In this document: positions 16,498 through 64,000 of the stretch, piece by piece
How positions within the stretch are numbered: the stretch's first letter is position 1
How the letters are laid out: every line of letters starts with the position of its first letter
Source of the DNA: an uncultured bacterium
Lineage (GTDB): Bacteria; Bacillota; Clostridia; Oscillospirales; CAG-272
Assembly: GCA_949282345.1 (NCBI GenBank)
Contig: CASDOQ010000015.1
Span: 17,488-81,487 of the forward strand
Length of the DNA stretch: 64,000 bases
Direction of reading: 5' to 3'
Notes under the pieces: model-generated
The model's database searches: none
What the model saw: only the letters and a program-made list of their open reading frames with translations
What the model was told of the DNA's origin: nothing
Program-made: the position numbers and the translations under genes

Positions 16498-18437
16498 CAG
16501 CGGATCCGTTCACCGAGAGGGGTCTCTGGGTCAAGAAATACCACGCGCACCTGCTCTTCCCCGGAGGCGAGCAGCATCCCGCGGCTTTCGACTCCGCAAA
16601 GTTTGGCGGGGGCGAGATTCGCCACCACGACAACGGTCTTTCCGATCAGCTCGTCGGGCGTATAGAATTTTGCGATCCCCGAAACGATCTGCCGCTTCTC
16701 GTAGCCGAGATCAACCTGAAGTTTCAGCAATTTTTTTGCCTTCGGCACCGGCTCGCACGCAAGAACGCGGGCTGACCGCAATTCCACCTTTCCGAAATCC
16801 TCAATTCCGATCTCGGGTTCTCCCGCGGGCTTTTCAGGGGTTGCTTCAGCGGCTTCAGCGGCTTGCCTCTGCTCCAGCATACGGAAGAAGGCGGCCTCGT
16901 CCACCCGGGCAAAGAGCGTTTCGGCTTCTCCGAGCGGCTGTCCGACCTTTAACGCGCCGAAGGAGGAGATCGTTTCGTATGCGGTGACGTCGGTGCCGAG
17001 CTGAGCAAAGATCTTCTCTGCCGTGCCGGGCAGATACGGGGTCAGTAGCACGGCCGCCGCGCGGATGACCTCCAGGAGGTTGTAAAGAACCGTCCCGAGC
17101 CGCTCGCGCTTTTCGGGATCCTTGGCAAGCGCCCAAGGCATCGTTTCGTCAATATACTTGTTCGCGCGCCGAAGCATCGAAAAGATCTCTTCCAGCGAGT
17201 CGGCCACGTGGAAGCTCTCCATCAGGGCGCGGCTCTTTTCGATCGCCGCGGCGACCGCGGCCTTCAGCTCAGCATCCGGCCCCTCTTCGGTCCCGGGAGT
17301 CGGAACGATCCCGTCAAAATACTTTTTGGTCATGGCGTGCGTCCGGCTGACCAGATTCCCGAGGTTATTGGCGAGGTCGGTGTTATAACGGTTGATGACG
17401 TTCTCGTAGGTGATACTGCCGTCCGCCGCGTAGGGCATTTCGGCAAGCGCGAAATACCGCACGCCGTCCACGCCGAAGTCGCGCGCCAGATCATCCGCAT
17501 AAATGACGTTCCCGCGGGACTTGGACATCTTGTCCGTCCCCGAATTGAACCACGGATGACCGAAGACCTTTTTCGGCAGGGGAAGATCGAGCGCCATCAG
17601 GATGATCGGCCAGTAAATGGTATGGAACCGCAAAATATCCTTCCCGATCACGTGAACATCCGCCGGCCAGTACTTACGGAAGAGTTCGGGCTGCGTCTCC
17701 AGATCGGGGTCGTAGCCGAGGGCGGTAATGTAGTTGGAAAGTGCATCGATCCACACGTAAATGATATGTTTATCGTCAAAAGGAACCGGAATGCCCCAAC
17801 GGAAAGAACTGCGTGAAACGCAGAGATCCTGAAGCCCGGCGTGGAGGAAGTTGTTCAGCATTTCCTTCTTCCGCCCCTCCGGCTCAATGAATTCGACATG
17901 GTTTTCGATGTAATCGATCAGACGGTCGGCATACCGGCTCATACGGAAGAAATAGGCCTCTTCCCGGGTCTTCTGCACGGGTCGGCCACAGTCGGGGCAT
18001 ACGCCGCCGGCGGCCTGCGTATCAGTGAAGAATGCCTCGCAGGGCGTGCAGTACCACCCCTCGTAATATCCCTTGTAGATATCGCCTTTTTCGTAGAGTT
18101 TGCGGAAGATATGCTCCACGCTCTTCACGTGATAGTCGTCGGTCGTGCGGATAAATTTATCGTAGCTGGCACCCATCAGATCCCAGATCTTTTTGATCTG
18201 TCCCGAAACGTCATCAACGTACGCCTGCGGGGAGACCCCCGCTTCGTTGGCGAGATTTTCGATCTTCTGCCCATGTTCGTCGGTCCCGGTAAGGAAGAAA
18301 ACATCCTTTCCCATCTGCCGCTGGAAACGTGCCACCGCGTCGGTCATGATGACCTCGTAGGTGTTTCCGAAATGCGGCTTACGCGAACTGTACGCAATGG
18401 CCGTGGTGATGTAAAATTTTTCTTTGTCCTGTGCCAT
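16497..18437 (-). CDS. metG: Methionine-tRNA ligase
   Basis: ...YITTAIAYSSRKPHFGNTYE (HIGH-type), Zn knuckle CTPCE...CPDCG, KMSKSRGN (KMSKS), and a C-terminal tRNA-binding OB domain. Confidence 0.95.
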   Translation of the reverse strand: MAQDKEKFYITTAIAYSSRKPHFGNTYEVIMTDAVARFQRQMGKDVFFLTGTDEHGQKIENLANEAGVSPQAYVDDVSGQIKKIWDLMGASYDKFIRTTDDYHVKSVEHIFRKLYEKGDIYKGYYEGWYCTPCEAFFTDTQAAGGVCPDCGRPVQKTREEAYFFRMSRYADRLIDYIENHVEFIEPEGRKKEMLNNFLHAGLQDLCVSRSSFRWGIPVPFDDKHIIYVWIDALSNYITALGYDPDLETQPELFRKYWPADVHVIGKDILRFHTIYWPIILMALDLPLPKKVFGHPWFNSGTDKMSKSRGNVIYADDLARDFGVDGVRYFALAEMPYAADGSITYENVINRYNTDLANNLGNLVSRTHAMTKKYFDGIVPTPGTEEGPDAELKAAVAAAIEKSRALMESFHVADSLEEIFSMLRRANKYIDETMPWALAKDPEKRERLGTVLYNLLEVIRAAAVLLTPYLPGTAEKIFAQLGTDVTAYETISSFGALKVGQPLGEAETLFARVDEAAFFRMLEQRQAAEAAEATPEKPAGEPEIGIEDFGKVELRSARVLACEPVPKAKKLLKLQVDLGYEKRQIVSGIAKFYTPDELIGKTVVVVANLAPAKLCGVESRGMLLASGEEQVRVVFLDPETPLGERIR

Positions 18438-18461
18438 AAAAGCCTCCTGATGAAAGAGAAT

Positions 18462-19247
18462 TTATTTTTCCCCGGGCGGGTGGCGCAAGCAGAAATGCAC
18501 TGTGCGCCGGGCGCGCCCGAGCAAGAATACGGGATAGACCGGAACGGTAGCCAGACCTCCGGTGAGGAAAATGAGGAGAACGGCCGGCAGGCCGGCCAGC
18601 GAATAGCGCATCGTCTCGCGCGGGTGGGCAGAAAAGATCCGACGCGACATTTTACTGGCCATGGCGTAACCGACCTGCGGGAAGCTGACGAGAATCGCCG
18701 GCAGGAATGCCCGCCGCGCCCGATCGCGGAAATAGAAAGGCAGAAAGGCCGTCCACGCAGCAAAAGCCGGCAGACACAAAAGATTTCCCTGTGCAGAGAG
18801 CAGGAGGGCCGGCAAAAGCCCCGCCGTCACCGAAAACCGGCGCACCGCCTGCCCAAGACCAAAAAGAACCGCTGCGCGGTGCCGAACGGGAGAGAGATAA
18901 AAGGCAGGAAGATAGGAGAGCGGTTCCTCCGCTCCCGTTACGCAGGCATACGCATACGCCGCAAGCCCGAGGTCGTAGGGGGCCAGGAGAAACGCGCTGA
19001 AAAGCGTCGAGAGCAGGAGGGTCACCCCCGCCACCGGGAAGATTCCGAACGATCGCACGAAGACCGGATAATACCCGCCGGCCGCAAGCGTCAGGGGAAT
19101 GGCGAAAAAAAGCAGGAGCGAAGCAAGCCAGAATAAAGACACCGGCACGCGCAGAGAGGCGCAGGCCCGCCGGTAATTCGGATCGGCCGCCGTGCGCTTC
19201 TCCTCGCAAAGAAAAGTATTGTTTACAAAAAATGCAAAGCTCTCCAT
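18462..19247 (-). CDS. Hypothetical polytopic membrane protein
   Basis: ATG 19247 follows AGAGGTGA. The protein has 6-7 hydrophobic segments and no recognisable motif. Confidence 0.55.
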   Translation of the reverse strand: MESFAFFVNNTFLCEEKRTAADPNYRRACASLRVPVSLFWLASLLLFFAIPLTLAAGGYYPVFVRSFGIFPVAGVTLLLSTLFSAFLLAPYDLGLAAYAYACVTGAEEPLSYLPAFYLSPVRHRAAVLFGLGQAVRRFSVTAGLLPALLLSAQGNLLCLPAFAAWTAFLPFYFRDRARRAFLPAILVSFPQVGYAMASKMSRRIFSAHPRETMRYSLAGLPAVLLIFLTGGLATVPVYPVFLLGRARRTVHFCLRHPPGEK

Positions 19248-50584: not shown

Positions 50585-51004
50585 TTTTATACCTTGACCG
50601 TTTCACGTCCTATACTCATTTTGAAATTGCAACAAATTATAAATCTCAGCTTTATTGGTAGAATGAGTCTGGTATAAATGCATTTCCGAGGGCGACCGCC
50701 TCGGCAGTCTTCTTCTCTCAATTACTCACAGTAATTCAAACACAATATATGACATAAAAACAGCAAAATTTTTATGTAAAAATGATTCAAAAAATCGATG
50801 TTCAAAATACATAAGTTCTTTCATGGCAAATACAAGGTAATATAAGGTTTTTGAGAGAATAAATAAGATTTTTACGGCAAAGCAGGCTTACAATATGCCG
50901 CAATTTTGTCCCCGCCAACGTTCTTTTGTGAGTGCGATTCACGCCCCGGGCAGTCCTCTGCGGCTCTTCTACGCTAACTTATCTATAACCGTGACAAAAC
51001 AACA

Positions 51005-51047
51005 TAAAAAAGTCTGAACAGAGATAAAGTTGCATTCTGTTCAGACT
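51005..51047 (-). terminator. Intrinsic terminator of the minus-strand defence cluster
   Basis: The minus strand reads AGTCTGAACAG-15 nt-CTGTTCAGACTTTTTT, just after the helicase stop. Confidence 0.75.
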
Positions 51048-51061
51048 TCAAATTTTTAAAA

Positions 51062-52759
51062 TTATTGAAGGTGAAGTTTCCTTCGGATAATTTCCAAGCT
51101 TCTCTGAGTTGTGTCCTCTTCTTTAAAACTTTCCACAATTTCTTCCATGATTTCAGAACTCCAATAAATCTTCAGTTTTTTCTTTGCCCTTGTAATTGCG
51201 GTATAGAAAATTCCATGAGTGATTTTTTCAGAGTTGCTTTTAGGAATAATAACTTTTACCGAATCATATTCCAAACCTTGTGCTTTGTGAATAGAAACAG
51301 CGTATGCAAGTTGAAAAGGAATTACAGAATACATCCGATCCTCATCATTTGCATATTCAACAGAATCATCATGGGCGTACACGATAAATCTAATGCGCGT
51401 TGATTCTTCCGCTGCAGAGATAAAATCAATTCCTTCCTTCTCACAAAGATCTTTTGTTAAGTTCGTTGCAACATCAATCGTAAAAGATATATCCTTGCTT
51501 CGTTTTTCGATGTTGATAATAGTACCTTTTAGATTGTTGTAAAGGATGGAAAATCGTTGTGAGTCATTGAACAAAATGTGATCTCCAATTTTATAAGTCC
51601 ATTCTTGCCATGTAACTGGTTCTCCACACGAATTGTCATTTTGAAAATAACTATTCATATTGTTCAACCCAAATTTACCATCATAATTCAAGCACAAAAC
51701 AACTTCGTCTTTATCCTTTTCTTCAAAAATTTTCTCACCAATTTCTTCAGAAAACGGACCATCCATAGCTAACTTTTCAACTATCAACTCGCCGCGATTT
51801 CTAACATCATCCCATAGACTAACAATATCCGGGTCTTTTGTTCGCCATGTATTTAATAATTCAACATTTGCTCCGTACGTATTGATTATGTCTTTTGCAT
51901 AGAAAAACCAGTTTCCAAAATCAATAGATTCGATCTGATGAATGTCTCCGGCAAGCACTAAAAACGTATTTGGATTTATTTTTTTAAGGAATTCACACAT
52001 CGTTCGATTGTCAATGGTGCTACACTCATCAACAAAAATAACATCATAATCGGTGAGGTTTACTTTCTTTGTAAAGCTGTCAATGCTTACGAATTCAGAG
52101 TCGGCACCAGGATTGTCAATGCGTCTTTGTAAATTCTGTTTTGCAGTATGTGTTTTTGTGAGAAAGAGTTTCTTTTGCTTTGCCATCAAGTTCGATATAT
52201 AATTAAGGAGCAGCGTTTTGCCCGTTCCGGCGGCGCCATAAATTAAAAGAATATGGGAGTTAACAAAAACATTTTGTAGAGCTACCCTCTTTAAATCATC
52301 CTCAAAAACAATACCACAGTTTCTTAGATATGTTTGATTAAACTCTTTTTGTCCGGGGTTATCAAGTTTTGAAAGTTCTAATAACTTGGATAAAATGCTT
52401 AGAGTGGTTTGTTCATATGATTCAATAGACACCAATCCATTGTTGATATTGATTTCGTATCCTTGAGCACGTTCCCAATCATCAAGGCACTTATTATACG
52501 TAATAATTTGTTCTTCGCTTGCAATAGAATCAATATCAAAGAAAATTTCACCTGTTTTACCGATTTGACTTTGAATTTTTAAATACGGTTGAACAGTTTC
52601 AAGATTAGCTCCTCCTGTTACATCTAAAATATTTCTAAAATTGCTTTCACCGCTTGTGTTGCTGCCAAAAAGATTAGAGATAAAAGGATTTTTTCGAATG
52701 GGTAACACCTGGTTGACAACCTTAAATTTGGTGACAACATCTTTCTTGCTCCAGGCCAA
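51062..52759 (-). CDS. SF1B (RecD/Dda/Pif1-like) helicase with an unknown N-terminal region of about 170 aa
   Basis: LLIYGAAGTGKT (Walker A, DNA about 52215-52245), VIFVDECS (Walker B), LAGDIHQ, VSIHKAQGLEYD and YTAITRAKKKL. The only in-frame start is TTG 52759, which overlaps the upstream ORF by 136 nt. This may be a frameshifted fusion. Confidence 0.75.
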   Translation of the reverse strand: MAWSKKDVVTKFKVVNQVLPIRKNPFISNLFGSNTSGESNFRNILDVTGGANLETVQPYLKIQSQIGKTGEIFFDIDSIASEEQIITYNKCLDDWERAQGYEININNGLVSIESYEQTTLSILSKLLELSKLDNPGQKEFNQTYLRNCGIVFEDDLKRVALQNVFVNSHILLIYGAAGTGKTLLLNYISNLMAKQKKLFLTKTHTAKQNLQRRIDNPGADSEFVSIDSFTKKVNLTDYDVIFVDECSTIDNRTMCEFLKKINPNTFLVLAGDIHQIESIDFGNWFFYAKDIINTYGANVELLNTWRTKDPDIVSLWDDVRNRGELIVEKLAMDGPFSEEIGEKIFEEKDKDEVVLCLNYDGKFGLNNMNSYFQNDNSCGEPVTWQEWTYKIGDHILFNDSQRFSILYNNLKGTIINIEKRSKDISFTIDVATNLTKDLCEKEGIDFISAAEESTRIRFIVYAHDDSVEYANDEDRMYSVIPFQLAYAVSIHKAQGLEYDSVKVIIPKSNSEKITHGIFYTAITRAKKKLKIYWSSEIMEEIVESFKEEDTTQRSLEIIRRKLHLQ

Positions 52760-54369
52760 GGTTGCACTTTTTCGAGAGTTTCTTCTCGCAGATTGATAAG
52801 GAGATATCTAACCGTGTTGCGACCAAATTCAAGAGAATCTTTTGAATAAGATTCTCTCAATTTTATCAGTACTTCTTTGAAATACGACGTGTTTGCATTG
52901 CAATAAATTAAATCCACAATTTTAGAAAATGAAACTTCTTTTAAGTCAATTAGATCAAGCAAGTTGATACCAGACTCAGTTAGAAATTTCATAAGAGAAT
53001 TATACTCGATGTAGTTTGAAGATATTGTCGTACGAATGTACAATATTTTTGCCAATTTATTAAGTGCGGACGGCTCAATTGCTACACCCCAATTAGTTAT
53101 TATCTTGATTGTGGAAGCTACTCCCCACAAATCTAATTTTGCATTGATATATGCGATTTGTACCGAATAGTTAGTTGTAATGTTTTCTTTTGTATAAGCG
53201 GTGATTCGGTTATACTTTGTTGCATATACACCAGCCAATTGCAGTGTAACCTCGTAATATCTTTCTTTCCCAACAAAGAATGGTGTCTTTTTTACAACAT
53301 AAAATTTTGAACCACTTAACTTTTGCGGAAGAATCTCTACAGATTTTATTACATCTGCAATTTGCTCATAATATTTCGTATCCGTTTTATCTATATGCAA
53401 TGGGAATTTTTCTAAATTGTGTAGTACTGATGTTCCATACTCTTTATAAAGGAAATCTCTAATTTGCCACAAAAAATTATAATATTTGAGCATTAATCGC
53501 TCTGATTGTCCTTCATCCGCTTCTCGATCCTCAATATATTTAAGACCTTTTAGAAATGTAGCAAGATATTTCGTCTCCACCTTCAATAATGCTTGTTCCC
53601 AAGCTAACTGTAGGTTTGTTTGAGTATTTCCCAATCGCAACGAATTCAACAGCAAGGCAGAACGACACATATCGTATAGACGCGGTAAAATGTAATGAGA
53701 AACGTCGTCTCTGGTATATTCGGGATCATCTATAAGGTCTATGCCAGACGTTATATACTTATCACAAGCAGCAATAATCTTATCAATTTCACTTCTGCAA
53801 AGGTCTTTCTCGCTCAATTTGTTTACGAAAGAATGGCGTGCGGTGATTAATTCAAGTTTTTTGCAAAAAGAAACAATGCTATCTTCGGTATCAAAGATTT
53901 CTTCATCCGCAGAGAAACTAATCGTAGCACTTTTCCTGTTGAAATCCAGCGAGTTAATAAAGTCTACTGACATGTACTTCCAAAACACTCTTTTTTTGCC
54001 TCGTTCATCTGGATTGAGCACAACAAAGAGAATTCCAGGATCTAATGTTACGCTTGTTGCAATATATGCCGGGAAAGCCAAACTGCGCAATGAATATTTA
54101 ACGATGCCATCATTCTCTGTATAATCATGTGTTCCTTTAATTTGCACGTAAAAAGACTGCACAGGACGTCTGCACAAGTCGGGATTAGGGACAAGCTCAA
54201 AAAAACCGTCTGTGTTTGGCCATTTGTCATTTTTTGAAAAATCACAATTGATTCTTCCGTTAGAATTAAGAAAAGACTCCAGTGTTGTAACAGCTGCAAC
54301 ATCTTCTGCTGATTGCTCAGTATGAGTTTTTACATGTACATCTATGATTTCTTTTGATTGTGATAACAT
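52624..54369 (-). CDS. DUF4365/Mrr-like PD-(D/E)xK nuclease-fold N-domain protein with a large unknown helical region
   Basis: ATG 54369 follows AAGGAG. ...SKNDKWPNTDGFFELV...(21 aa)...FYVQIKGT fits a D...E...QxK core. The last ~45 aa (PGARKMLSPNLRLSTRCYPFEKILLSLIFLAATQ...) look like out-of-frame read-through. Confidence 0.6.
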   Translation of the reverse strand: MLSQSKEIIDVHVKTHTEQSAEDVAAVTTLESFLNSNGRINCDFSKNDKWPNTDGFFELVPNPDLCRRPVQSFYVQIKGTHDYTENDGIVKYSLRSLAFPAYIATSVTLDPGILFVVLNPDERGKKRVFWKYMSVDFINSLDFNRKSATISFSADEEIFDTEDSIVSFCKKLELITARHSFVNKLSEKDLCRSEIDKIIAACDKYITSGIDLIDDPEYTRDDVSHYILPRLYDMCRSALLLNSLRLGNTQTNLQLAWEQALLKVETKYLATFLKGLKYIEDREADEGQSERLMLKYYNFLWQIRDFLYKEYGTSVLHNLEKFPLHIDKTDTKYYEQIADVIKSVEILPQKLSGSKFYVVKKTPFFVGKERYYEVTLQLAGVYATKYNRITAYTKENITTNYSVQIAYINAKLDLWGVASTIKIITNWGVAIEPSALNKLAKILYIRTTISSNYIEYNSLMKFLTESGINLLDLIDLKEVSFSKIVDLIYCNANTSYFKEVLIKLRESYSKDSLEFGRNTVRYLLINLREETLEKVQPWPGARKMLSPNLRLSTRCYPFEKILLSLIFLAATQAVKAILEIF

Positions 54370-54481
54370 ACTTATATTTCTCCTTATCGAGCTATCAACT
54401 TAAATATTTTGGAAATAGAAAACACTTATGATAAACGTGTTAAAAACCTTTTGTGTAAGCCCTATCACAACTAACAAACAT

Positions 54482-55564
54482 TTATTTCTTTCTAAAAGTT
54501 TTGTTTTGATATAAAACTACAGCATCTTGATCGTTGTCTATTATATCTTTTACATCACAATAAATAAGTTTCTTTTTGTGTATGGCATAATCCATTAGTG
54601 GAACAATTTGTCCCGTTTTTTCATTAAGAATCGCGGGGGCTAAATAATATTCATTGAATTCATAATATATTTCTTTGAATAGATTATAATTTTTAAAATT
54701 ATCAGTGGGATTAGCTCTTATAATTCTTGAAACATTGAGAATCATTGTTTCGTCGATAACACATCCCTGTGATTCAGCACGTTTGATTGCTTCGTCAAGG
54801 TTAGTTCCAACAACAACATAATATCCTTTCTCTTCATTAGGAACATCTCCTTCGATTAATGATATACGTATGTCATCATTTACATCATTTTTTCCAACGC
54901 TCGCAATCCAATCTGAAAATATCTTTTTAGCATATCTCTCATTGCAAAAAGGGAGTAATAATGTAGGCAAATCTGTATACCCAACACAAAAACCTGCCCC
55001 ACGCCAAACCGCTTTATCCCATGTTTTTATGTCAATAAGAGATGTTACAAACAAAGTTTTTCTTTCCTTTTTAGGTAAAGGTCGTAGTTTCCCCAAAGGC
55101 GGTTTTTCACTTGTCTTGACGCCTCTTAAACGCCAATATAACTTATCAAAGCCTTTGTCGGAACTTACATTGTAATATGTAGCTCCTTGAATTGGAGTAG
55201 GAATATACTTTAAATCATCTTCTTCGAAAACAACGGGGATAAACCGATTATTATCAGAACCAGACATGTATAGTTTCTGATAAATAATATTGCTTTCCCA
55301 TTTTACACCTTTGCCTTCGTCTGTTTTACCCAAAACTTTCTGCTGGTAACCAGAAGAACCAATGATGATTACAAAGTCAGATTCTTCAATTTGTCTTTCC
55401 ATCCATCTTGGCCACCCTTCGGACGGAGACTCTTCGTATTGATCCAACGAAGTATCTATTCCTTCTTGTCTAAGATGATTGGAGAATTGTAAAACCTGGT
55501 CCGCAAACTCTACTGAGTCTTGCGAATAACTGATAAAAACTTTAGGATTATAGTTTTCTTCCAT
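54482..55564 (-). CDS. SEFIR/TIR-domain protein with an unknown C-terminal domain of about 190 aa
   Basis: MEENYNPKVFISYSQDSVEFADQVLQFSNHLRQEGIDTSLDQYEE...WPRWMERQIEESDFVIIIGSSGYQQK...GKGVKWESNIIY is the bacterial SEFIR/TIR_2 pattern. A GAAAGGAAAA RBS is present. The gene lies 18 nt downstream of the peptidase gene. Confidence 0.75.
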   Translation of the reverse strand: MEENYNPKVFISYSQDSVEFADQVLQFSNHLRQEGIDTSLDQYEESPSEGWPRWMERQIEESDFVIIIGSSGYQQKVLGKTDEGKGVKWESNIIYQKLYMSGSDNNRFIPVVFEEDDLKYIPTPIQGATYYNVSSDKGFDKLYWRLRGVKTSEKPPLGKLRPLPKKERKTLFVTSLIDIKTWDKAVWRGAGFCVGYTDLPTLLLPFCNERYAKKIFSDWIASVGKNDVNDDIRISLIEGDVPNEEKGYYVVVGTNLDEAIKRAESQGCVIDETMILNVSRIIRANPTDNFKNYNLFKEIYYEFNEYYLAPAILNEKTGQIVPLMDYAIHKKKLIYCDVKDIIDNDQDAVVLYQNKTFRKK

Positions 55565-55582
55565 GCTATAAATTTTCCTTTC

Positions 55583-56245
55583 TCAAAGAATTTCCATTAT
55601 TTTTCGATTGGCCTTCAACCAGTTTTGTTCCGATTCGAACTTTGGAAGGACAGTTCTTACTCTTACCCAAAACTGTTTGCTATGGTTTTTGTAATCAATG
55701 TGACTTAATTCGTGAACAACAACATAATCAATAACCGATATGGGACACATTACTAATCTCCAAGCAAAATTCAACGAATTGTTTTGACTGCAAGAGCCCC
55801 ATCTATGCATTGCATCTGTTATCTTTATAGAGGTTGCTTGTACCCCCATCAGTCTTGAATAGCGTTCAATTCGCTCTGAAATAATAAACAGTGCTTGTTT
55901 TTTCAAATACTCAATTAAAACATCTTTCGATTGTTCTGAATTTGGCAACTTGATTACTTTGCCATCGAAGGCGATATCTTGAGTTTCACAAAGCTCAACG
56001 ATATAATCTTCACCAACAAAAGGAACAACATCGCCCGTTGACATCGTTATTGAAGAATACTTCTCGTCAAAAATCGCTACACTATTTATTTTTTTAGAAA
56101 TCCACCCTTGCTTTTCAGCAACAAACGAGTTGATTTCCATAGTGCTTGCAATGTGCGGAGCTCTGACGATCAATTCTCCATTTGTATTAACAACCAAAGC
56201 AATTGTTTTTCTATTGCTACGAATTATTTGTTTTGGTTCTATCAT
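55583..56245 (-). CDS. DUF45/YgjP-like (M48/WLM-type) zinc metallopeptidase
   Basis: MIEPKQIIRSNRKTIALVVNTNGELIVRAP...YVVVHELSHIDYKNHSKQFW contains HExxH. Its ATG overlaps the hsdR stop (ATGA). Confidence 0.8.
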   Translation of the reverse strand: MIEPKQIIRSNRKTIALVVNTNGELIVRAPHIASTMEINSFVAEKQGWISKKINSVAIFDEKYSSITMSTGDVVPFVGEDYIVELCETQDIAFDGKVIKLPNSEQSKDVLIEYLKKQALFIISERIERYSRLMGVQATSIKITDAMHRWGSCSQNNSLNFAWRLVMCPISVIDYVVVHELSHIDYKNHSKQFWVRVRTVLPKFESEQNWLKANRKIMEIL

Positions 56246-59200
56246 AATTCGTTCCTTCCATAGTGGCAATATGCCAATTCCATGATCTTTTGAGCTATGT
56301 TCTTACGATTGCTGAAAACTGACGGAATTGAACTGAACAAAGGATTTCTCAGCAGAACATTGATAATGTATGTACGCAATTGCTTTTGAAGAGAAATATT
56401 GCCCCAGAAATTGATAGCACTTGTATTCTTCTTAATGGTGCACAAAATATCGGTAACAATATCCTTGAGTTGATTGAAGTCCTGTTCGGACAAATCCTCG
56501 TATGACTTATCTCCGAAGATCTCTTTTTTTACTAATGCAAAGAAAGGCATCTCAGTTTTAGGATCAAAGCCATATGTGTTTTCACGCTCACGTCCAAGTA
56601 TAATATCTTCCTGACGCATTTTTTCAAGAGCTGCGTAAAGATCGTTCCAATTGTCTTTTAGAAGTTGCAATATCTTATCCAATTTATCGCTCATTCTATC
56701 AAAGAATTCGGGGTCTTTGGGCTGATTAATATTTATATACTCTCTAATCGCGTAAGTTAATTCATCACACTTTTGGCGAACGGACTTTGTTCCCTTGTCT
56801 TTTACTCCAAATTCGGGTGACAAAATAGAAACAGGCGGTATCTTGGGGTCAACTCCGTTAACCTTCAAGTATTCTTCAACAATTGCCCTTACTTTGTCAC
56901 TTGCATCATGCATGGAAAATCGAGGATCTCGGCAACTGTTGGCTACCGATTGGCGTATAAACGATAGCATTTTGTAGTCGTTTTTGTAATCCAATGCTGC
57001 AGGATCGGGCAAAACTCGGTCAAACAACTTTGAAATTTGCCTGAACAGTGCATTGAATTTTTCGCGCAATTCGGGATCGGCAACAAGCTCCTGAATAATC
57101 AGCGGAGCTTCATCAATTGATTTTGCTCCAATATCATCTCGTATAAATTGCTTCATAGTCAAGAAAGAAGTGTGAAGCTTATCAATATCTTCTTCTTTCT
57201 TCTGCAAGACATCCAACATTTCTTCAATGTCGGGATCTGCATATTTTGACAAAGCGGATTTAAGATGATTGGTAACACCAATATAGTCAACTACATAACC
57301 GCATTTTTTATTATTTCCGCAGGTTCGGTTAACTCTTGCTATGGCTTGAAGCAGATTGTGATCTCTTATCACTTGATCGAGATACATAACCTGCTCAACG
57401 GGCGCATCAAATCCGGTTAACAGCATACTTTTAACGATAATAATACCGTAATTACTGTCGTTACCGTGTTCATCTTCTTCACCGAACTGCATCTTAAATC
57501 CAGCAATGATATTATCGTTTCTCGATTCATCTGCAAACTCTTTCAAATGAGGCTTATCGTTATTTGAAGAAGATATGATACAAGCCGCTTTTAGCTTCTC
57601 CAACAATTCAATATTCACATTGTTGGGATTGCTTTCTTTCAACTCTGCAATTTTGATTGGCAAAAGTTCATTGATAGCACAATAGTAGCGATATGCTGCC
57701 TCTCTTGAGTAAGCAACAATTTGTGCCTTGAATCCGTTGACAAAAACTGTGTTAATGTAGTGATTCAACATATCGTTTGCTTTATTACGGATAACAGCCT
57801 TGTCCTCAAGATATGCTTTCAATACTGTTTTATTCAAAAGCATTTCTTGTTCTTCCGAGGTAATCATGCCGAATATATCGGCGAATTTTTCATTCATTGC
57901 TTCGGGATCTGTGATCTCACTCTCGGTAGCTCTACCCTCATATTTGATTTCAACAACGACTTCATCTTCCACCGCTTGGCGCATGGAATAAGTGTCTATG
58001 TATCCACCAAAAGTTTCTGCCGTTTTATCAATAGGTGTTCCGGTAAAAGCAACCTTGACGGAATTCGGCATGGATTTCCACATGTTAGCCGCAAGATCAC
58101 TATATTGGCTTCTATGAGCTTCGTCAATCATCAACAAAATATTGGATGATTCATTGAGAACAGGGAAGCTTGTTTCTTCGCCACGCTCTCCAAACTTATG
58201 CACCATTGCAATGGTGATGTCAGAAGCCGTATTTTGTATCAGTTTGCGAAGACCTTCACTACTTTTTGCAACATGGCAAGTGTACTTTACGCTACTACTT
58301 GTCTTATATAATTGCTTTTGCAAGTCTGTGCGGTCAAGCAGCAAAACGATTTTGTAATTCGCAAGATCCGCAGAATTGTACATTTTTCGGATAACGAACA
58401 TCATGGTAAGCGATTTGCCGCTACCTTGTGTATGCCAAACCGTACCGCCTTTATTAAAGGCGTTTTCGCCGTTGCGTAACCGTTCAATGATCTTTCTTGC
58501 ACCACGATATTGTTGGTATCTTGCTACGATTTTTAGAGTACGACCTTCATCATCTTCTTTATAAACGGTATAGTTCTGCAAAATATCCATGAAATTGGAA
58601 GGAGAAAGCATTCCTTGAATCAGTATTTCCTGACTTGAGGGAGCTCTGCCTTCAACGATTTCAGATAGACGGTAGGGATAAGGATCTTTCCATTCGATAT
58701 AGTGAGCGTGTTTTCCTGTAATAGTGGAATAGCGCGCTTCATTGAACGAAGTCGATACCATAAACTGATTATAAAAGAAGAGTTCGGGAACGCCTTCAGC
58801 TTCAGCAGCACCGCGACGATCCTGATATCTCATCAATTGCTCGATACCTTCATGAATCGGATCGGTAATTCCGGGGGACTTACATTCGATTACAACCAGA
58901 GGCAAACCATTAACGAACAGTACGATATCGGGAATAATATGTGCACCGATTCCGGGGATTTGAATTTTATACTGCGAAATAGCAAGATAGCTATTAAGCG
59001 TATTATTGGGATCAAAATGATCCACATCAGAGAAATCAATAACACGCACAGGACAATTTACTTCTCCCGTTTCTTCATTGAACGCTGAAAAGCCCAGTGT
59101 TATTCTGTCAAAAACTTCAACATTGGCGTCCAATAGGTTTCTTGAAGAATACTGTTGCATTTCCATCACAAGATCATCTGCTTGTGCATCGGTGAGCCAA

Positions 59201-59400
59201 GGGTTTAATCGAAGGAGTGCGGAACGAAATTCACTGACGATAATAACTTCTGACAACGAAGTTCTATATGAGCTTTCGGGATCATGCTTTTGACTATCAG
59301 TCAGTGCAAGTGTTTTCCAACCTAATGCCGACAACTGATCCATGAAAGGCTTTTCGACAAAGCTATATTCACTTGCTCTGACTCTATCTCTTTCACTCAT
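56242..59400 (-). CDS. hsdR: Type I restriction endonuclease subunit R
   Basis: ATG 59400 follows AAAGGAG. The N-terminal nuclease region reads ...PDIVLFVNGLPLVVIECK. Helicase motifs are HTQGSGKSLTM, LLMIDEAHRSQ, FTGTP and ...QAIARVNR. Confidence 0.93.
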   Translation of the reverse strand: MSERDRVRASEYSFVEKPFMDQLSALGWKTLALTDSQKHDPESSYRTSLSEVIIVSEFRSALLRLNPWLTDAQADDLVMEMQQYSSRNLLDANVEVFDRITLGFSAFNEETGEVNCPVRVIDFSDVDHFDPNNTLNSYLAISQYKIQIPGIGAHIIPDIVLFVNGLPLVVIECKSPGITDPIHEGIEQLMRYQDRRGAAEAEGVPELFFYNQFMVSTSFNEARYSTITGKHAHYIEWKDPYPYRLSEIVEGRAPSSQEILIQGMLSPSNFMDILQNYTVYKEDDEGRTLKIVARYQQYRGARKIIERLRNGENAFNKGGTVWHTQGSGKSLTMMFVIRKMYNSADLANYKIVLLLDRTDLQKQLYKTSSSVKYTCHVAKSSEGLRKLIQNTASDITIAMVHKFGERGEETSFPVLNESSNILLMIDEAHRSQYSDLAANMWKSMPNSVKVAFTGTPIDKTAETFGGYIDTYSMRQAVEDEVVVEIKYEGRATESEITDPEAMNEKFADIFGMITSEEQEMLLNKTVLKAYLEDKAVIRNKANDMLNHYINTVFVNGFKAQIVAYSREAAYRYYCAINELLPIKIAELKESNPNNVNIELLEKLKAACIISSSNNDKPHLKEFADESRNDNIIAGFKMQFGEEDEHGNDSNYGIIIVKSMLLTGFDAPVEQVMYLDQVIRDHNLLQAIARVNRTCGNNKKCGYVVDYIGVTNHLKSALSKYADPDIEEMLDVLQKKEEDIDKLHTSFLTMKQFIRDDIGAKSIDEAPLIIQELVADPELREKFNALFRQISKLFDRVLPDPAALDYKNDYKMLSFIRQSVANSCRDPRFSMHDASDKVRAIVEEYLKVNGVDPKIPPVSILSPEFGVKDKGTKSVRQKCDELTYAIREYININQPKDPEFFDRMSDKLDKILQLLKDNWNDLYAALEKMRQEDIILGRERENTYGFDPKTEMPFFALVKKEIFGDKSYEDLSEQDFNQLKDIVTDILCTIKKNTSAINFWGNISLQKQLRTYIINVLLRNPLFSSIPSVFSNRKNIAQKIMELAYCHYGRNEL

Positions 59401-60658
59401 TTTCAACACTCCTTTCTAATAATGGATCTACGGGTACTTTGTGCGTTAGGAGATCTTGCATCAATCCTGTTTTTGTGCTTAACAACTTATGATAAATGTT
59501 TTTTTCTTCCATTATCATTTTATTAATTGCATCAATCTTTTCCCAAATCCTTTTTTGTTCGGGTGCAGACATCAAAACAATTTTCATCTTTTTTAAGTTG
59601 GACAAACTTATGGCAGGTTGTGCAGTAACGGCTTTAATTAATTCGAATTTTCCTTGCGCATAATAGTATTCTAAGAATTCATGAAGTAATTCTGGAACAT
59701 ATTGCTTATTAACGGTTATTTTAAGACTGTTGCCAGCAATAATACTTTGCGGATGGTTTTCGGGCAAAACGGCACTTCTTCCGCAGTTTGCGCCGATTTT
59801 CGCCATTACGATATCTTTTGGGTTTACACGACAACGATATTGCTCACGAAATTTTTCCATATCTACATAAACATAGTTGTTAGCAACAAAGTGTCCAGAG
59901 GTTACATAACCACTTTGAATAACTGGAATTCCCGAAGATCTGTAATGGACCAATTTTAGGTTGCTACCAAAGGGACCATCTACAATTGAGTCAGAATGTT
60001 TTGTTGACCATTCTGTCAATTCGACGCACTCCCATTCGACGGGAATCTTGCCCAAAGGGGAATCTTTATACTTATGTGTTTTTGGAGAACGAATTACGCC
60101 GTTTTCGTCTATGCCATTGACCAGAAGATCTTGTAATAAGCCTTCTTTTATTGATTGGTATTTTTCTATGATTGCTTTCGTTTTAATGATTGATGAATCA
60201 AGTGTTTGTAGAATTCGGGAAATCTTCTCTTGCTCCAATAAGTCTGTTGGACAATTTAATAACATTTCTTCAATGTCTTTTTTATTAACCGCAAGAAACG
60301 TGCTTCCTTGACTTTTTTTATGCAATTGTGGCACTTCATACGTTAAAGCATACAGAGCAAACGCTTTGCAAATTTTGAATGTGATAGAAGCTAACCCACG
60401 ACCAATACAATAATTCTTGTCGGCTACGTTAACTGCTCCAACGGGTGCTCGAACGCTAATCATAATATCATCTTTTTGTGCAATCTTTTTAGGAGAAGAA
60501 CACCAAAATTGCTCACAGGGGTGGTATTCTCCAAAATCAGCATTACCTTGTAAAAATGCTGCACCATCCTCGTTTTCGTTAACAGAACTTCCAGCAGGAG
60601 ACTGCCCCATATTTACATAGGCAATATCTTTTAGTTGATAATGATTCCAATCACCCAT
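59393..60658 (-). CDS. hsdS: Type I restriction-modification specificity subunit S (two target-recognition domains)
   Basis: [21 protein letters not shown]...ISVRAPVG...; the second half reads ...[11 protein letters not shown]...[11 protein letters not shown]... Conserved spacers LLQDLL and LMQDLL are present. The gene overlaps both hsdM and hsdR by 8 nt. Confidence 0.9.
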
Positions 60659-63221
60659 TGATATACCCCAAACCTTTCAAGAATGCATTCAGCTCTTTTT
60701 CTGCGTTAGAACGATCCATCAGCAACGAATTAAGACTTGTAAAATATTTATCGTACAGATGTTGAACTGCTTTAACTGTTTTGTTAGATTCTTCTTTCAA
60801 GTACTTATCAAACTCTTGCACAAATCCTTCGTGAAGAATTTGCATGATCAAAGCCTCGCACTGTTCTTCTGTCAGTTCAATGCGGATAGCATCGATTTTT
60901 GCTTCCAATTCCTCGGTTTTCTTCTTAAGGATCTTGTTAAGATTTGTTTTAACTTTTTTGAGCTCGGTGATTCTCTTAAGTTGCTGTTTCGCCAATTCTA
61001 CATCTTTCGCGTTCTTGGAGTTGTTTTTGATTGCATTCAGATATGCTCTTACAGTCTTTTCACTTACCTCAATTTCTTCGCCATCTTCGTCTATTTCAGT
61101 GTCCATTTCTATGCTTGCAAGATATTCATCAAACTCGTTTTGTGCATCGGCAATAGACTTTTCGAGGTCGGCAATTGCAACAAGTTCTTCGGGGAAGTGT
61201 TCAGTTGCAATTTTTTCATCGGAAACAAGCGCAGCAACAAAGCCCTCAGAACGAATCGTTTTGAAGACATTTTTAATCATGATAACTTCTTTAACAGTTA
61301 CCTTGGTTTCTGTTCCATCTGACGAAGTTTCAATTTCGGTTGACTCACGAACTGTATAGCTGTGATCCCACCAGTTAGCAAAAACACCATTGCTTTGGAA
61401 GTTGTCAAGAATGCCGACAGGAGTTAATTCTGCTTCCAAAGCGGTGGTATAGGTTTTCTTGAAATTATATATATCAAGCTTTTCATGGATGTTTCTGATA
61501 TCAACGATGGCTTTGCTCCAAAAGCTTTCAAAAGCAGCGTGCATTCTATCGTTTGCGCCGGTAACACCTTCACACGAAAGAATAGTATCCTTTATACCTT
61601 GTTTTGTGGAACAATTGCTATTAAACAAACAAAATTCATCGGTATACTCATCAAAAATAACATCCTCGGAAATGCCGTATTTCGCAATTTTACCGTTAAG
61701 CGCCGCTATTTCCGTCTTGGGCACGCCGCCTGAAATATGCGCACGCACATTGTGGGGCTCTTGTGCAGGACTATTATCTACATAACGGCGAATATTCAAG
61801 TTGCTGTCGTTTGTATCCTCGTTAAGGATATCATCAATAGAGATGAATTTTGAATATCCGGGGACTTCCAATTTGTTATCAAAGACATTTACGATTTTTT
61901 CGCTATCTTCGGGGCGAAGATAGTTCTGATTTTTGCCCTCGCCATATTCCGCATCTGCGTTAATAATCAGAATACGTCTGTCCTTTACCTTCTTCTTGTT
62001 AACAACAATCAAGCAAGTAGGGATGCTTGTCCCGTAAAACAAATCCGGAGGCAAACTGATAATTGCTTCGATGATATCATCATCAAGGATGCCGCTTCTG
62101 ATAACTTTTTCCTGACCACCACGGAACAAAACACCATGAGGCATAACGGTAATCATCATGCCGTCGGGCTTCAAACTTGCAATCATGTGCTGAACAAACA
62201 TAAGGTCTGCTTTTTTGCCTGTTTCGGGAGCCCAACCATAGCAAAAACGATTTTGACAAATCATCTTGTCGCTACGCTTGTAGTTCTGAGAGAAGGGTGG
62301 GTTCGCAATAACTCGGTCAAATTGTTTTGTGTTGCCATTTTCTACCCAATGCGGTGTTTCCAGCGTATCTCCGTTTTCGATGTTTGCATCGGGAATATCG
62401 TGCATAATCATATTCATCTTACAAATAGACCATACGCTCGCCGCATCATCCTGTCCGTAAAGTGCCAAATTGGTAGCATCTTGACCTTGCTGCTCTACAT
62501 ACTGTTTGCTCTGAATCAGCATACCGCCCGAGCCAACGGTGGGGTCGTATATTTCGTTACCTTCTTGAGGCTTAATAAGACGAACCATAAGTTGAACAAC
62601 AGACGCAGGGGTATAGAATTCGCCACCTTTTTTACCTGCGCTATCAGCAAAGTTCTTAATCATATACTCGTAAGCCGCACCAAGCAAGTCCGGGAAAACG
62701 AAATTGTCATTTGTGAGCTTGTACTTGTTGAAATGACGGATAAGATCAATAAGCTTAGCATCGCTGATGATCTGTTTGCTCTTTACCTTTTTAGCAAAAT
62801 CGATAGAGTCAAATACTCCGGTTAATTCGGCGTTGCTACGTGATATTTCCAAAAGTGCACGCTTAAGTCGGGAAGCAACCGATACCTTGAGGTGTAATAC
62901 ACCCGAGAATTCTTCTTCGGGTCTACTATTGGGAACGATAAAAGGTTCGCATTCCCAACGTGCCAGTTTAGGAACAAAGAATGTAGCTCCGTAAGATTCG
63001 GGATCTTCCAGTCTTTCGGCAATCTGTGCCTCGGTATTTCCGTCTTTGCGATATTCAGCCTCGAGTTGCTTTCTCTTTTGCATGAAGTTGTCAGACAGAC
63101 GCTTCAAGAACAACATTCCAAAAATATATTCCTTAAACTCGGAAGCATCCATTTTTCCTCTGAGTATATCAGCGGCTTTTAATAGATAGTTTTCTAATTG
63201 TGAAATTGTTATTTTGCTCAT
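60651..63221 (-). CDS. hsdM: Type I restriction-modification methyltransferase subunit M, with a C-terminal extension of about 370 aa
   Basis: The HsdM N-domain reads ...[38 protein letters not shown] is motif I and [11 protein letters not shown] is NPPF. At 856 aa it is longer than typical HsdM (about 520 aa). Confidence 0.9.
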
Positions 63222-63290
63222 TTTAATTACCTCGTTTTTCGTCTATATGGCAATGGACAGAGCCTATTTGCCCCTAAATTCGCATAAGTA

Positions 63291-64000
63291 TTATGCGTTA
63301 AGCAGAATGACAGAATTTGCAATTCGTTTTTCTCCACCAACAGGAGTAGTATAAAAACGCTGTTCGATTCCGAACAAAAGTTTTTTCATATCATCTTCGG
63401 TGCCTATATTAAACGAATTTTCTGAAACTTGAAGTTCGGGGCAGTAACTACCAATATAAGCAAAGATGTTTTTTCTATCATCTTCTTCGAGTTCGCTCAA
63501 TGTTTTCATTGCTAAAGCTATTCTTTTTCTGTTGGGCGTTTTGACACTTTTCGCAGAATAGCCATCCGTTAGATTTATAAAGTCATTATTCAAGAACTGG
63601 GTTGTTTCTTCTTCGGTTGCTTCTCGATAAAGTTGGTCAATTCCTTTAAATATACTTGTAATAGCTTCAAGTCGCTTAAAATACAAGATGTCGTTCGACT
63701 TGTCATAGATTGCATCGGGCAGATCATTGATAACTATTTCACTACAGTCATCTTAATATTCGTATGCTTCACCCAAGGCGAGTACACGCCTCTTAGAAAG
63801 CAACTTTGATTTAGATGTATTTTGAAATGCTATATAGTTATCAGACAACACGAAGATGAAGTCAATTCGTGAAAAATCTTTTCTATCTAACGTTTGGAAA
63901 TCGACAGCTGTATCGGTTGACGATAGAAGATCAATAGCATACTCTGTTTCCGATGCCTTCTCAATACAAAACCATTCACCTTCTTCAAGAAGCGTACCCG
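63291..64000 (-). pseudogene. Unknown gene upstream of hsdM, interrupted by an in-frame TAA (63753-63755); 5' end outside the window
   Basis: One minus-strand frame reads ...GTLLEEGEWFCIEKASETEY...SKRRVLALGEAYEY*DDCSEIVINDLPDAIYDKSNDILYFKRLEAITS... and continues into track ORF 63291..63686. The 131-aa ORF only has a TTG start. Confidence 0.6.

Follow-up and report, generated by a model that had tools for sequence, protein, structure and literature searches.

A bSEFIR gene at the distal end of an apparent type I restriction-modification operon in rumen and gut Clostridia

The window analysed here is a 64,000-nucleotide (nt) stretch of contig CASDOQ010000015.1 (positions 17,488 to 81,487; assembly GCA_949282345.1) from an uncultured Oscillospirales bacterium of the CAG-272 lineage. 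On its minus strand lies a type I restriction-modification (R-M) system, hsdMSR, followed by a gene for a YgjP-like (DUF45) zinc metallopeptidase and then by a gene whose product carries an N-terminal SEFIR/TIR domain. An earlier note on this DNA described the TIR gene as operonically embedded behind the R-M system and proposed that it could guard restriction in the manner of PrrC. We favour another reading, with a probability of roughly 0.6: the protein is a bSEFIR, an autonomous second-layer abortive infection (Abi) effector, and its gene rides at the promoter-distal end of the type I R-M operon as a passenger, without direct coupling to HsdMSR.

The locus would then be a horizontally mobile, co-directional module that joins hsdMSR and a common YgjP/DUF45 companion to bSEFIR and to PDC-S53, a phage defence candidate (PDC) gene. 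Transcripts of the SEFIR gene would most likely come from read-through of the hsd operon, with translation starting at the gene's own ribosome-binding site; expression would then be low and constitutive, and co-transfer with the R-M genes would be assured. The C-terminal domain of the protein most likely senses a phage cue, which published escape mutants suggest to be capsid-related; the N-terminal SEFIR/TIR domain would then oligomerise and deplete NAD+. Immunity would be layered, with restriction acting first and NAD+ depletion following where restriction fails, and direct molecular coupling between the two would not be needed.

The five genes are tightly packed on the minus strand. The first, hsdM (60651-63221), encodes an 856-amino-acid (aa) methyltransferase (MTase) with a long C-terminal extension; hsdS (59393-60658) encodes a specificity subunit with two target-recognition domains, and hsdR (56242-59400) a restriction/translocase subunit of 1052 aa counted from the ATG at 59400. 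The longest open reading frame (ORF) of hsdR begins at a GTG at 59409, and the ATG was used for the overlap figure. The DUF45 gene (55583-56245; 220 aa) overlaps the hsdR stop codon in an ATGA, and the SEFIR gene (54482-55564; 360 aa) follows after an 18-nt junction (55565-55582) that reads TGA-GAAAGGAAAATTTATAGC-ATG. Together with the DUF45 stop codon the junction gives AGAAAGGA, a Shine-Dalgarno match ∼11 nt 5′ of the SEFIR ATG, so the TIR gene has its own ribosome-binding site, as the earlier note had it. The overlaps are 8 nt (hsdM/hsdS), 8 nt (hsdS/hsdR) and 4 nt (hsdR/DUF45). Separate gene calls on near-identical contigs reproduced all three and the 18-nt gap, in agreement with that note, and the 4-nt hsdR-YgjP overlap was likewise called on a group of related loci, L081-L086. 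Short overlaps of such size are normal in operons, so this anatomy is real yet statistically not unusual.

All three type I subunits are present with their catalytic motifs, as judged by Pfam, PADLOC and the translations (E-values in brackets). HsdM matches Pfam N6_Mtase (5.8e-98) and HsdM_N (8.7e-23) and, over the model's full length, PADLOC MTase_I PDLC03031 (1.8e-262); its translation contains ANPPFS, with the NPPF motif. HsdS matches Methylase_S (1.8e-29) in two stretches. HsdR matches HSDR_N (7e-36), SWI2_SNF2 (7.9e-69), a T1R_D3-like family (9e-20) and PADLOC REase_I (1.2e-128), and a PD...ExK-like nuclease motif (PDIVLF...VIECK) and a DEAH motif (MIDEAH) are visible in its translation. 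The system thus looks complete and apparently functional and, with its NPPF, DEAH and nuclease motifs in place, is not a decoy. The DUF45 protein matches the Pfam YgjP-like family (3.3e-50) and carries an HExxH motif (VVHELSH). Nothing useful on a link between DUF45/COG1451 and type I R-M was found in the literature searched.

The SEFIR/TIR domain spans residues 7-135 (nt 55160-55546) and scores higher against Pfam SEFIR (4.3e-19) than against TIR_2 (2e-15). This bears on family membership, since Millman et al. (2022) selected bSEFIR proteins by a SEFIR profile match stronger than the TIR match; the family is further defined as a single protein of ∼360-410 aa. The PADLOC bSEFIR model PDLC03957 matches residues 1-285 (4.2e-61), and the family's C-terminal domain is matched as well. 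Among sequences in the PDB, the Bacillus cereus SEFIR domain (5y8e/5y8f) was matched at 3e-17, and Act1 was also found. Foldseek searches with the N-terminal domain of an AlphaFold model returned Act1/IL-17R SEFIR domains and 5y8e at the top, and TIR structures match too. Pfam assigned only SEFIR/TIR_2 to the protein, and no ABC-ATPase or anticodon-nuclease domain. These profile and structure matches mark the TIR protein as a typical member of bSEFIR, a validated single-gene abortive-infection family, and NADase activity of its own is predicted.

The conserved C-terminal domain (residues ∼165-355, nt 54500-55072) is modelled with a predicted local distance difference test (pLDDT) value of 89, but searches of the PDB and BFVD gave no significant structural match (best E 0.02, template modelling score <0.3). 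An alignment of 17 diverse homologues shows that this domain is conserved, with many invariant residues. Within the N-terminal domain, the aligned homologues share D37, D41 and the pair W89-E90 without exception. A total of 473 homologues were found at E ≤1e-5, and every one with a named source comes from Firmicutes, chiefly Clostridia and Bacilli.

Published work on the family provides the functional background. The SEFIR protein of Bacillus sp. NIO-1130 protects B. subtilis against phi29, and the D40A substitution abolishes protection (Millman et al. 2022). Residues implicated in bSEFIR activity are an Asp for contacts between SEFIR domains, which is D40 in the protein from Bacillus, and a putative catalytic Glu. 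An S. thermophilus SEFIR homologue, among a set of cloned accessory systems, had narrow activity and was listed under NAD+ depletion/Abi, and later or secondary sources class SEFIR among NAD+-cleaving systems.

The C-terminal domain also occurs outside this architecture. A region corresponding to residues ∼173-355 of bSEFIR ends ∼1080-aa proteins that have no Pfam domain and are encoded on alphaproteobacterial plasmids (L099:2304-5534, Sphingobium; L100:2349-5612, Pseudosulfitobacter), with 29-30% identity and E-values of 1e-11 to 2e-9. One of these genes adjoins a Hachiman-like pair of DUF1837 and DEAD-helicase genes. The bSEFIR C-terminal domain may be a portable sensor module.

The hsdMSR-DUF45-SEFIR array looks like one operon, and SEFIR is probably co-transcribed with the restriction genes. 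The gap of only 18 nt leaves SEFIR no room for a promoter of its own. In a scan for minus-strand terminator-like sites from hsdM to the SEFIR stop, none was found except a weak match at 62029-62010, inside the hsdM coding sequence (CDS), and RNA folding of the DUF45-SEFIR junction was no more stable than that of shuffled sequences (z = −0.22). Within the 663-nt DUF45 gene, a pattern scan found no coding-strand promoter-like match. Overall, promoter and terminator matches occurred as often as expected from shuffled sequence, so these scans are uninformative as a whole. The length of the junction and its GAAAGG core are kept in three diverged lineages, here represented by the window and the loci L001 and L081, whose neighbouring genes differ by 5-6%. 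Overlaps, junction and terminator scan all fit the earlier note's single hsdMSR-peptidase-TIR transcript with no intervening terminator, and the co-transcription that it argued for remains a prediction from sequence.

Downstream of SEFIR, the arrangement changes. A 112-nt spacer (54370-54481) separates it from PDC-S53 (51062-54369, minus strand) and holds a candidate sigma-A promoter, TACACA-18-TATCAT at 54457-54428, as well as an AAGGAG ribosome-binding site for PDC-S53. The L081 spacer carries TTGTAC...TATAAT at the same position. As the −35/−10-like pair is positionally conserved, PDC-S53 may be its own transcription unit. No terminator-like fold was found in this spacer (z = +0.82).

Other rumen and gut Clostridia carry the six-gene block of hsdMSR, DUF45, SEFIR and PDC-S53 at 94-99% identity, with differing flanks. 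In L001, a metagenome-assembled genome labelled Clostridia bacterium from sheep rectum, the order is PDC-S14, KwaA, KwaB, hsdMSR, DUF45, SEFIR and PDC-S53. The island string of the window (50993-64000) is 98-99% identical to L001, hsdS excepted, but the core gene beside it, an FAD oxidoreductase/Rieske gene (49145-50497), is only 86% identical (stretch 49089-50958). The GC content falls from ∼0.5 to ∼0.35 at position 50500. The contrast in identity, together with the drop in GC content, suggests that the island spread horizontally and recently between diverged strains. In the L081-L086 lineage, hsdMSR-YgjP-SEFIR-S53 stand in the same order, and hsdM, hsdR, DUF45 and SEFIR are 94-96% identical to those of the window. 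Upstream of them, however, GmrSD takes the place of Kiwa (PDC-S14 and KwaAB in L001), and the downstream genes differ too. Because gene order and the 18-nt junction are retained while the flanks differ, the block is seen to move as one unit.

Two genes depart from this pattern of near identity. The window's hsdS has only ∼61-64% nt identity to its counterparts L001:4886-6172 and L081:4916-6172, whereas hsdM and hsdR are 95-98% identical; such divergence between neighbouring genes that are 94-98% identical points to a swap of target-recognition domains, and different type I specificities are therefore expected in the three strains. The PDC-S53 allele of L081 (11198-14503) is only 76% identical to window positions 51062-54369, which suggests allele replacement or much faster evolution. 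An Rfam scan of 50000-64000 found no RNA family. A repeat search for boundaries of the island or attachment sites returned short chance repeats only, and there was no tRNA near the island. In L001, a second HsdM-like gene (18219-19009; 7.6e-29) lies ∼4 kb past the island, beyond a reverse-strand core gene, and ends at the edge of the locus; the stretch that holds it has no match in the window.

The neighbourhoods of SEFIR genes were then surveyed at 80 species-level homologue loci, chosen from 314 found. Neighbouring ORFs were called and labelled by phmmer/jackhmmer with Pfam-verified seeds, key cases were rechecked with Pfam, and two loci (L050 and L060) were left out of the R-M tally as unverified. 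Of these loci, 41 form a Firmicutes-type clade of the family and 39 come from other phyla. A verified methylation-based system lies within four same-strand genes at 23 of the 41 Firmicutes-type loci, with SEFIR almost always downstream: 10 BREX, 6 type I, 5 type II or orphan Dcm and 2 fused MTase-type enzymes. SEFIR genes of Firmicutes thus habitually sit behind restriction or BREX genes. The earlier note had called for a survey of SEFIR genes following hsdR-DUF45, and that exact arrangement proved confined to the present module (1 of 80 loci); what does recur in Firmicutes is the broader position behind R-M or BREX.

The systems involved are diverse. Type 1 BREX loci of 10 species carry SEFIR between brxC and pglX, with gaps of 3-27 nt on either side of SEFIR where no extra ORF intervenes; on L061 all BREX components were verified. 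The 6 type I loci represent at least three unrelated lineages: this module, a Clostridium clade with the order hsdR-M-S-SEFIR and gaps of 11-22 nt, and L007. At L064 alone, SEFIR lies between hsdS and hsdR. L006 has a fused HSDR_N+MTase+S enzyme upstream of SEFIR, and L033 a ResIII+Eco57I enzyme downstream. Other partners are a D12 MTase with AlwI, then Shedu (L003), an N6 MTase with a PstI-like enzyme, then ThsA and ThsB (L009), Dcm with Eco47II at a 13-nt gap (L010), and Dcm (L011 and L045).

No R-M or BREX gene was detected on the same strand within about four genes at 54 of the 80 loci, and a Pfam search of three genes per side at these 54 (164 and 157 families) revealed no recurrent R-M family. 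One further locus, L073, has an HsdR-like neighbour that is unverified. Outside Firmicutes, an R-M-like neighbour occurs at 1 of 39 loci. On long metagenomic contigs, the three nearest homologues (∼67% identity) lie 17-106 nt behind differing genes: P0005 behind an unannotated 409-aa gene that itself comes after an AAA_14/DUF4143 ATPase gene, P0010 behind Abi_C and P0029 behind YhcG/PDC-S02. A SEFIR copy on a Lactiplantibacillus plasmid stands behind an AbiEii fragment.

Several further gene associations emerged from the survey. Genes for ThsB-like TIR proteins (PADLOC ThsB 1.7e-85) repeatedly adjoin SEFIR, often with a 132-147-aa PDC-M50A gene (L057:11119-12200, L064:11113-12197, L010:11137-12116, L007:7022-7753, L071 and L009:8417-9843). 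L009 carries a full ThsA(Macro)+ThsB pair ahead of SEFIR. At L014, L018, L062 and L063, a PDC-M50A-sized ORF (133-147 aa) follows SEFIR, and a ThsB-like gene was not detected. These arrangements may mean that two TIR-type systems are functionally linked, or that they share a cassette. Six BREX loci (L046:9498-9980, L048, L053, L055, L058 and L076) hold a conserved 159-162-aa ORF between brxC and SEFIR, at gaps of 9-21 nt, that has no Pfam or PADLOC match; it is an accessory gene that accompanies the SEFIR copies embedded in BREX. Finally, genes of a conserved family of helix-turn-helix (HTH) proteins, 73-95 aa long, head many of the R-M/BREX arrays that have SEFIR at their end or within them (for example L003:4475-4720, L009:5759-6016, L046:4510-4737 and L067:5023-5241). 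These proteins are related to the HTH_26 domain that the Dcm of L010 carries as a fusion, and they are likely controller-type regulators of co-directional defence operons.

Two sets of observations weigh against an uncoupled bSEFIR that depends on read-through. First, a sigma-70-like match of 10/12 positions lies at the hsdR/DUF45 boundary (56269-56241), and an internal promoter in hsdR/DUF45 is possible. Second, placement relative to R-M genes is strongly polar. Among the non-BREX Firmicutes-type loci, 12 have R-M genes upstream of SEFIR on its strand and 1 has them downstream; counted by individual position, 20 R-M genes fall at −4 to −1, all on SEFIR's strand, and 1 at +1 to +3. R-M genes make up 17 of 168 neighbours at |r| ≤3 and 4 of 188 at |r| ≥5 (Fisher p = 0.0014, a value that overstates significance because members of an operon do not count as independent observations). 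This polarity exceeds simple island clustering, and a functional link could underlie it.

The promoter-like match favours the alternative that SEFIR is simply an island neighbour, with its own promoter in the upstream CDS, no relation to R-M, and a short gap that reflects gene packing. The island is indeed a co-directional series of systems with no relation to one another (PDC-S14, Kiwa, type I R-M, SEFIR and PDC-S53), and tight spacing is only modestly enriched: a same-strand upstream neighbour lies within 30 nt of SEFIR at 20 of 40 Firmicutes-type loci (50%), compared with 38% of background gene pairs. However, the DUF45 gene lacks a coding-strand promoter-like match and no terminator precedes SEFIR, the 18-nt junction has been kept across lineages whose neighbouring genes diverged by 5-6%, and the marked upstream/downstream asymmetry of R-M around SEFIR is not expected under random packing. 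We consider plain adjacency a tentative alternative that is rather doubtful on this evidence.

The polarity also favours a guard, as the earlier note had proposed and as is known for PrrC, Ronin and PARIS. Here the R-M complex, or methylation-based systems more generally, would restrain SEFIR or be monitored by it, and a phage anti-restriction protein such as a DNA mimic, by inhibiting that complex, would free NAD+ depletion. SEFIR does lie tightly behind hsdR-DUF45 on the same strand, its family shows recurrent polar placement behind at least eight different R-M systems and within BREX in 10 species, and there is precedent for anti-anti-restriction effectors that reside at hsd loci or are triggered by Ocr, ArdA or Stp. 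The two systems that most often adjoin SEFIR, type I R-M and BREX, are both reported to be inhibited by Ocr (PMC7261183).

Nonetheless, a guard of this kind is unlikely. Tested SEFIR homologues defend singly, in hosts without a cognate R-M system, and phage escape mutations against SEFIR map to the major capsid protein, not to anti-restriction genes; both observations speak against control by the R-M complex. Linkage is not obligate either: only 6 of the 80 loci have a type I R-M system within four genes on SEFIR's strand, and at 54 of the 80 no R-M or BREX gene was detected nearby, whereas PrrC is almost always embedded. Nor is SEFIR nested in the hsd locus, since it follows the last R-M gene and DUF45 and precedes PDC-S53. 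It shares no domain with PrrC, RonA or AriAB. The partners, moreover, are unrelated to one another (two type I families, Eco47II, AlwI and PstI-like type II enzymes, a fused IIG-like enzyme and BREX), and in several loci Shedu, ThsA/ThsB (Thoeris) or SLFN+SMC genes lie between SEFIR and R-M, so a co-evolved physical interface with HsdMSR is disfavoured. That these partners include type II enzymes is a further difficulty: Ocr-type DNA mimics are not known to target enzymes such as Eco47II, AlwI or the PstI-like one. What survives of the backup effector suggested earlier is a second layer carried with the R-M operon, which is plausible; the PrrC-type mechanism attached to it does not fit homologues that act alone.

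A broader form of guarding is conceivable, in which Firmicutes bSEFIR is a 3′ passenger that senses a consequence of the bypass or inhibition of methylation-based immunity (type I, type II and IIG R-M as well as BREX) and so acts as a TIR-family anti-anti-restriction guard. The cue might be, for example, an anti-restriction DNA mimic or the replication of unrestricted phage DNA. We regard this as quite improbable.

Least probable by far, and rejected here, is a functional DUF45-SEFIR pair in which the YgjP-like metallopeptidase processes or regulates SEFIR like a protease-activated effector: the two are immediate neighbours, and the DUF45 stop codon lies inside the SEFIR ribosome-binding site, which makes translational coupling possible, but DUF45 adjoins SEFIR in this module only (80 loci; a jackhmmer search with DUF45 gave 1 match), and a DUF45 homologue beside type I R-M on a Geobacillus plasmid pairs with hsdR and has no SEFIR.

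The genes that flank the proposed passenger and its R-M operon show signs of decay or of sequence error. PDC-S53 encodes a DUF4365-like N-terminus and an SF1/UvrD-type helicase and is split in the window into two overlapping ORFs, 52624-54369 and 51062-52759, whose PADLOC matches are 1.3e-91 and 1.8e-186. In the alignment, the frameshift is a 1-nt deletion at ∼52695, where L001 has a run of A7 and the window A6; L001 has a single intact ORF of 1102 aa (PADLOC 1.4e-283). The gene could be a pseudogene or contain a phase-variable tract, or the split could come from an error in sequencing. Upstream of hsdM, a kwaB-like gene of Kiwa (63291-64000, minus strand) extends with its 5′ end beyond the window edge, and its distal 131 aa match PADLOC KwaB (2.6e-8). 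An in-frame stop at 63753-63755 turns the EAYEYQDD of the intact 277-aa KwaB of L001 into EAYEY*DD. Kiwa is probably inactivated in the window strain, unless the stop is an assembly error.

Comparison with known systems places the locus close to described biology. Like the bSEFIR of Millman et al. (2022), listed as SEFIR in DefenseFinder, the protein has an N-terminal SEFIR domain, a conserved C-terminal domain, a length of ∼360 aa and a place in a defence island. The difference lies in its setting, here promoter-distal in a type I R-M operon and there a solo gene with its native promoter. The likeness to PrrC in the EcoprrI locus (hsdMSR) is one of arrangement, since both are Abi-type effectors whose genes share a strand with a type I R-M system and are apparently co-transcribed with it. 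However, PrrC combines an ABC-ATPase with an anticodon nuclease, and its gene is nested among the hsd genes; PrrC is almost exclusively embedded in type I hsd loci and is physically silenced by the R-M complex, whereas SEFIR is TIR-like and follows hsdR-DUF45. Ronin (an hsdMS decoy with RonA) and PARIS are similar in concept, in that a death effector is tied to R-M or triggered by Ocr or ArdA. Ronin has no hsdR and uses a 61-aa membrane toxin, unlike the present locus with its full-length 1052-aa hsdR that carries nuclease and DEAH motifs, and neither RonA nor the AriAB proteins of PARIS have any sequence relation to SEFIR.

The closest precedent for the genomic arrangement is the preprint of Payne et al. 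(2024) on 'guilt by embedding', which already reported accessory defence genes that lie within BREX, DISARM and type I R-M systems, or are joined to them, in the same orientation as these methylation-based systems. PDC-S53 itself is a PADLOC model of the candidate class described there. Unlike the embedded genes of that work, the SEFIR of the window is distal to the last R-M gene; within the survey, genuine embedding is seen in the 10 BREX loci. SEFIR is not mentioned in the text or the 11 supplement files of Payne et al. (2024), nor in the BREX-diversity paper. The polar association of Firmicutes bSEFIR with upstream R-M, and its insertion between brxC and pglX, were not found in the literature searched and are possibly new; we offer the polarity pattern as a lead, not as a result. 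If bSEFIR is the autonomous passenger favoured here, gut and rumen Firmicutes stack an Abi effector behind a restriction operon so that the two travel and are expressed jointly, which helps to annotate defence islands and adds no new mechanism. If instead the polarity reflects functional coupling, and not convenience of insertion or expression, SEFIR would guard methylation-based immunity as a TIR-domain counterpart of PrrC, PARIS and Ronin.

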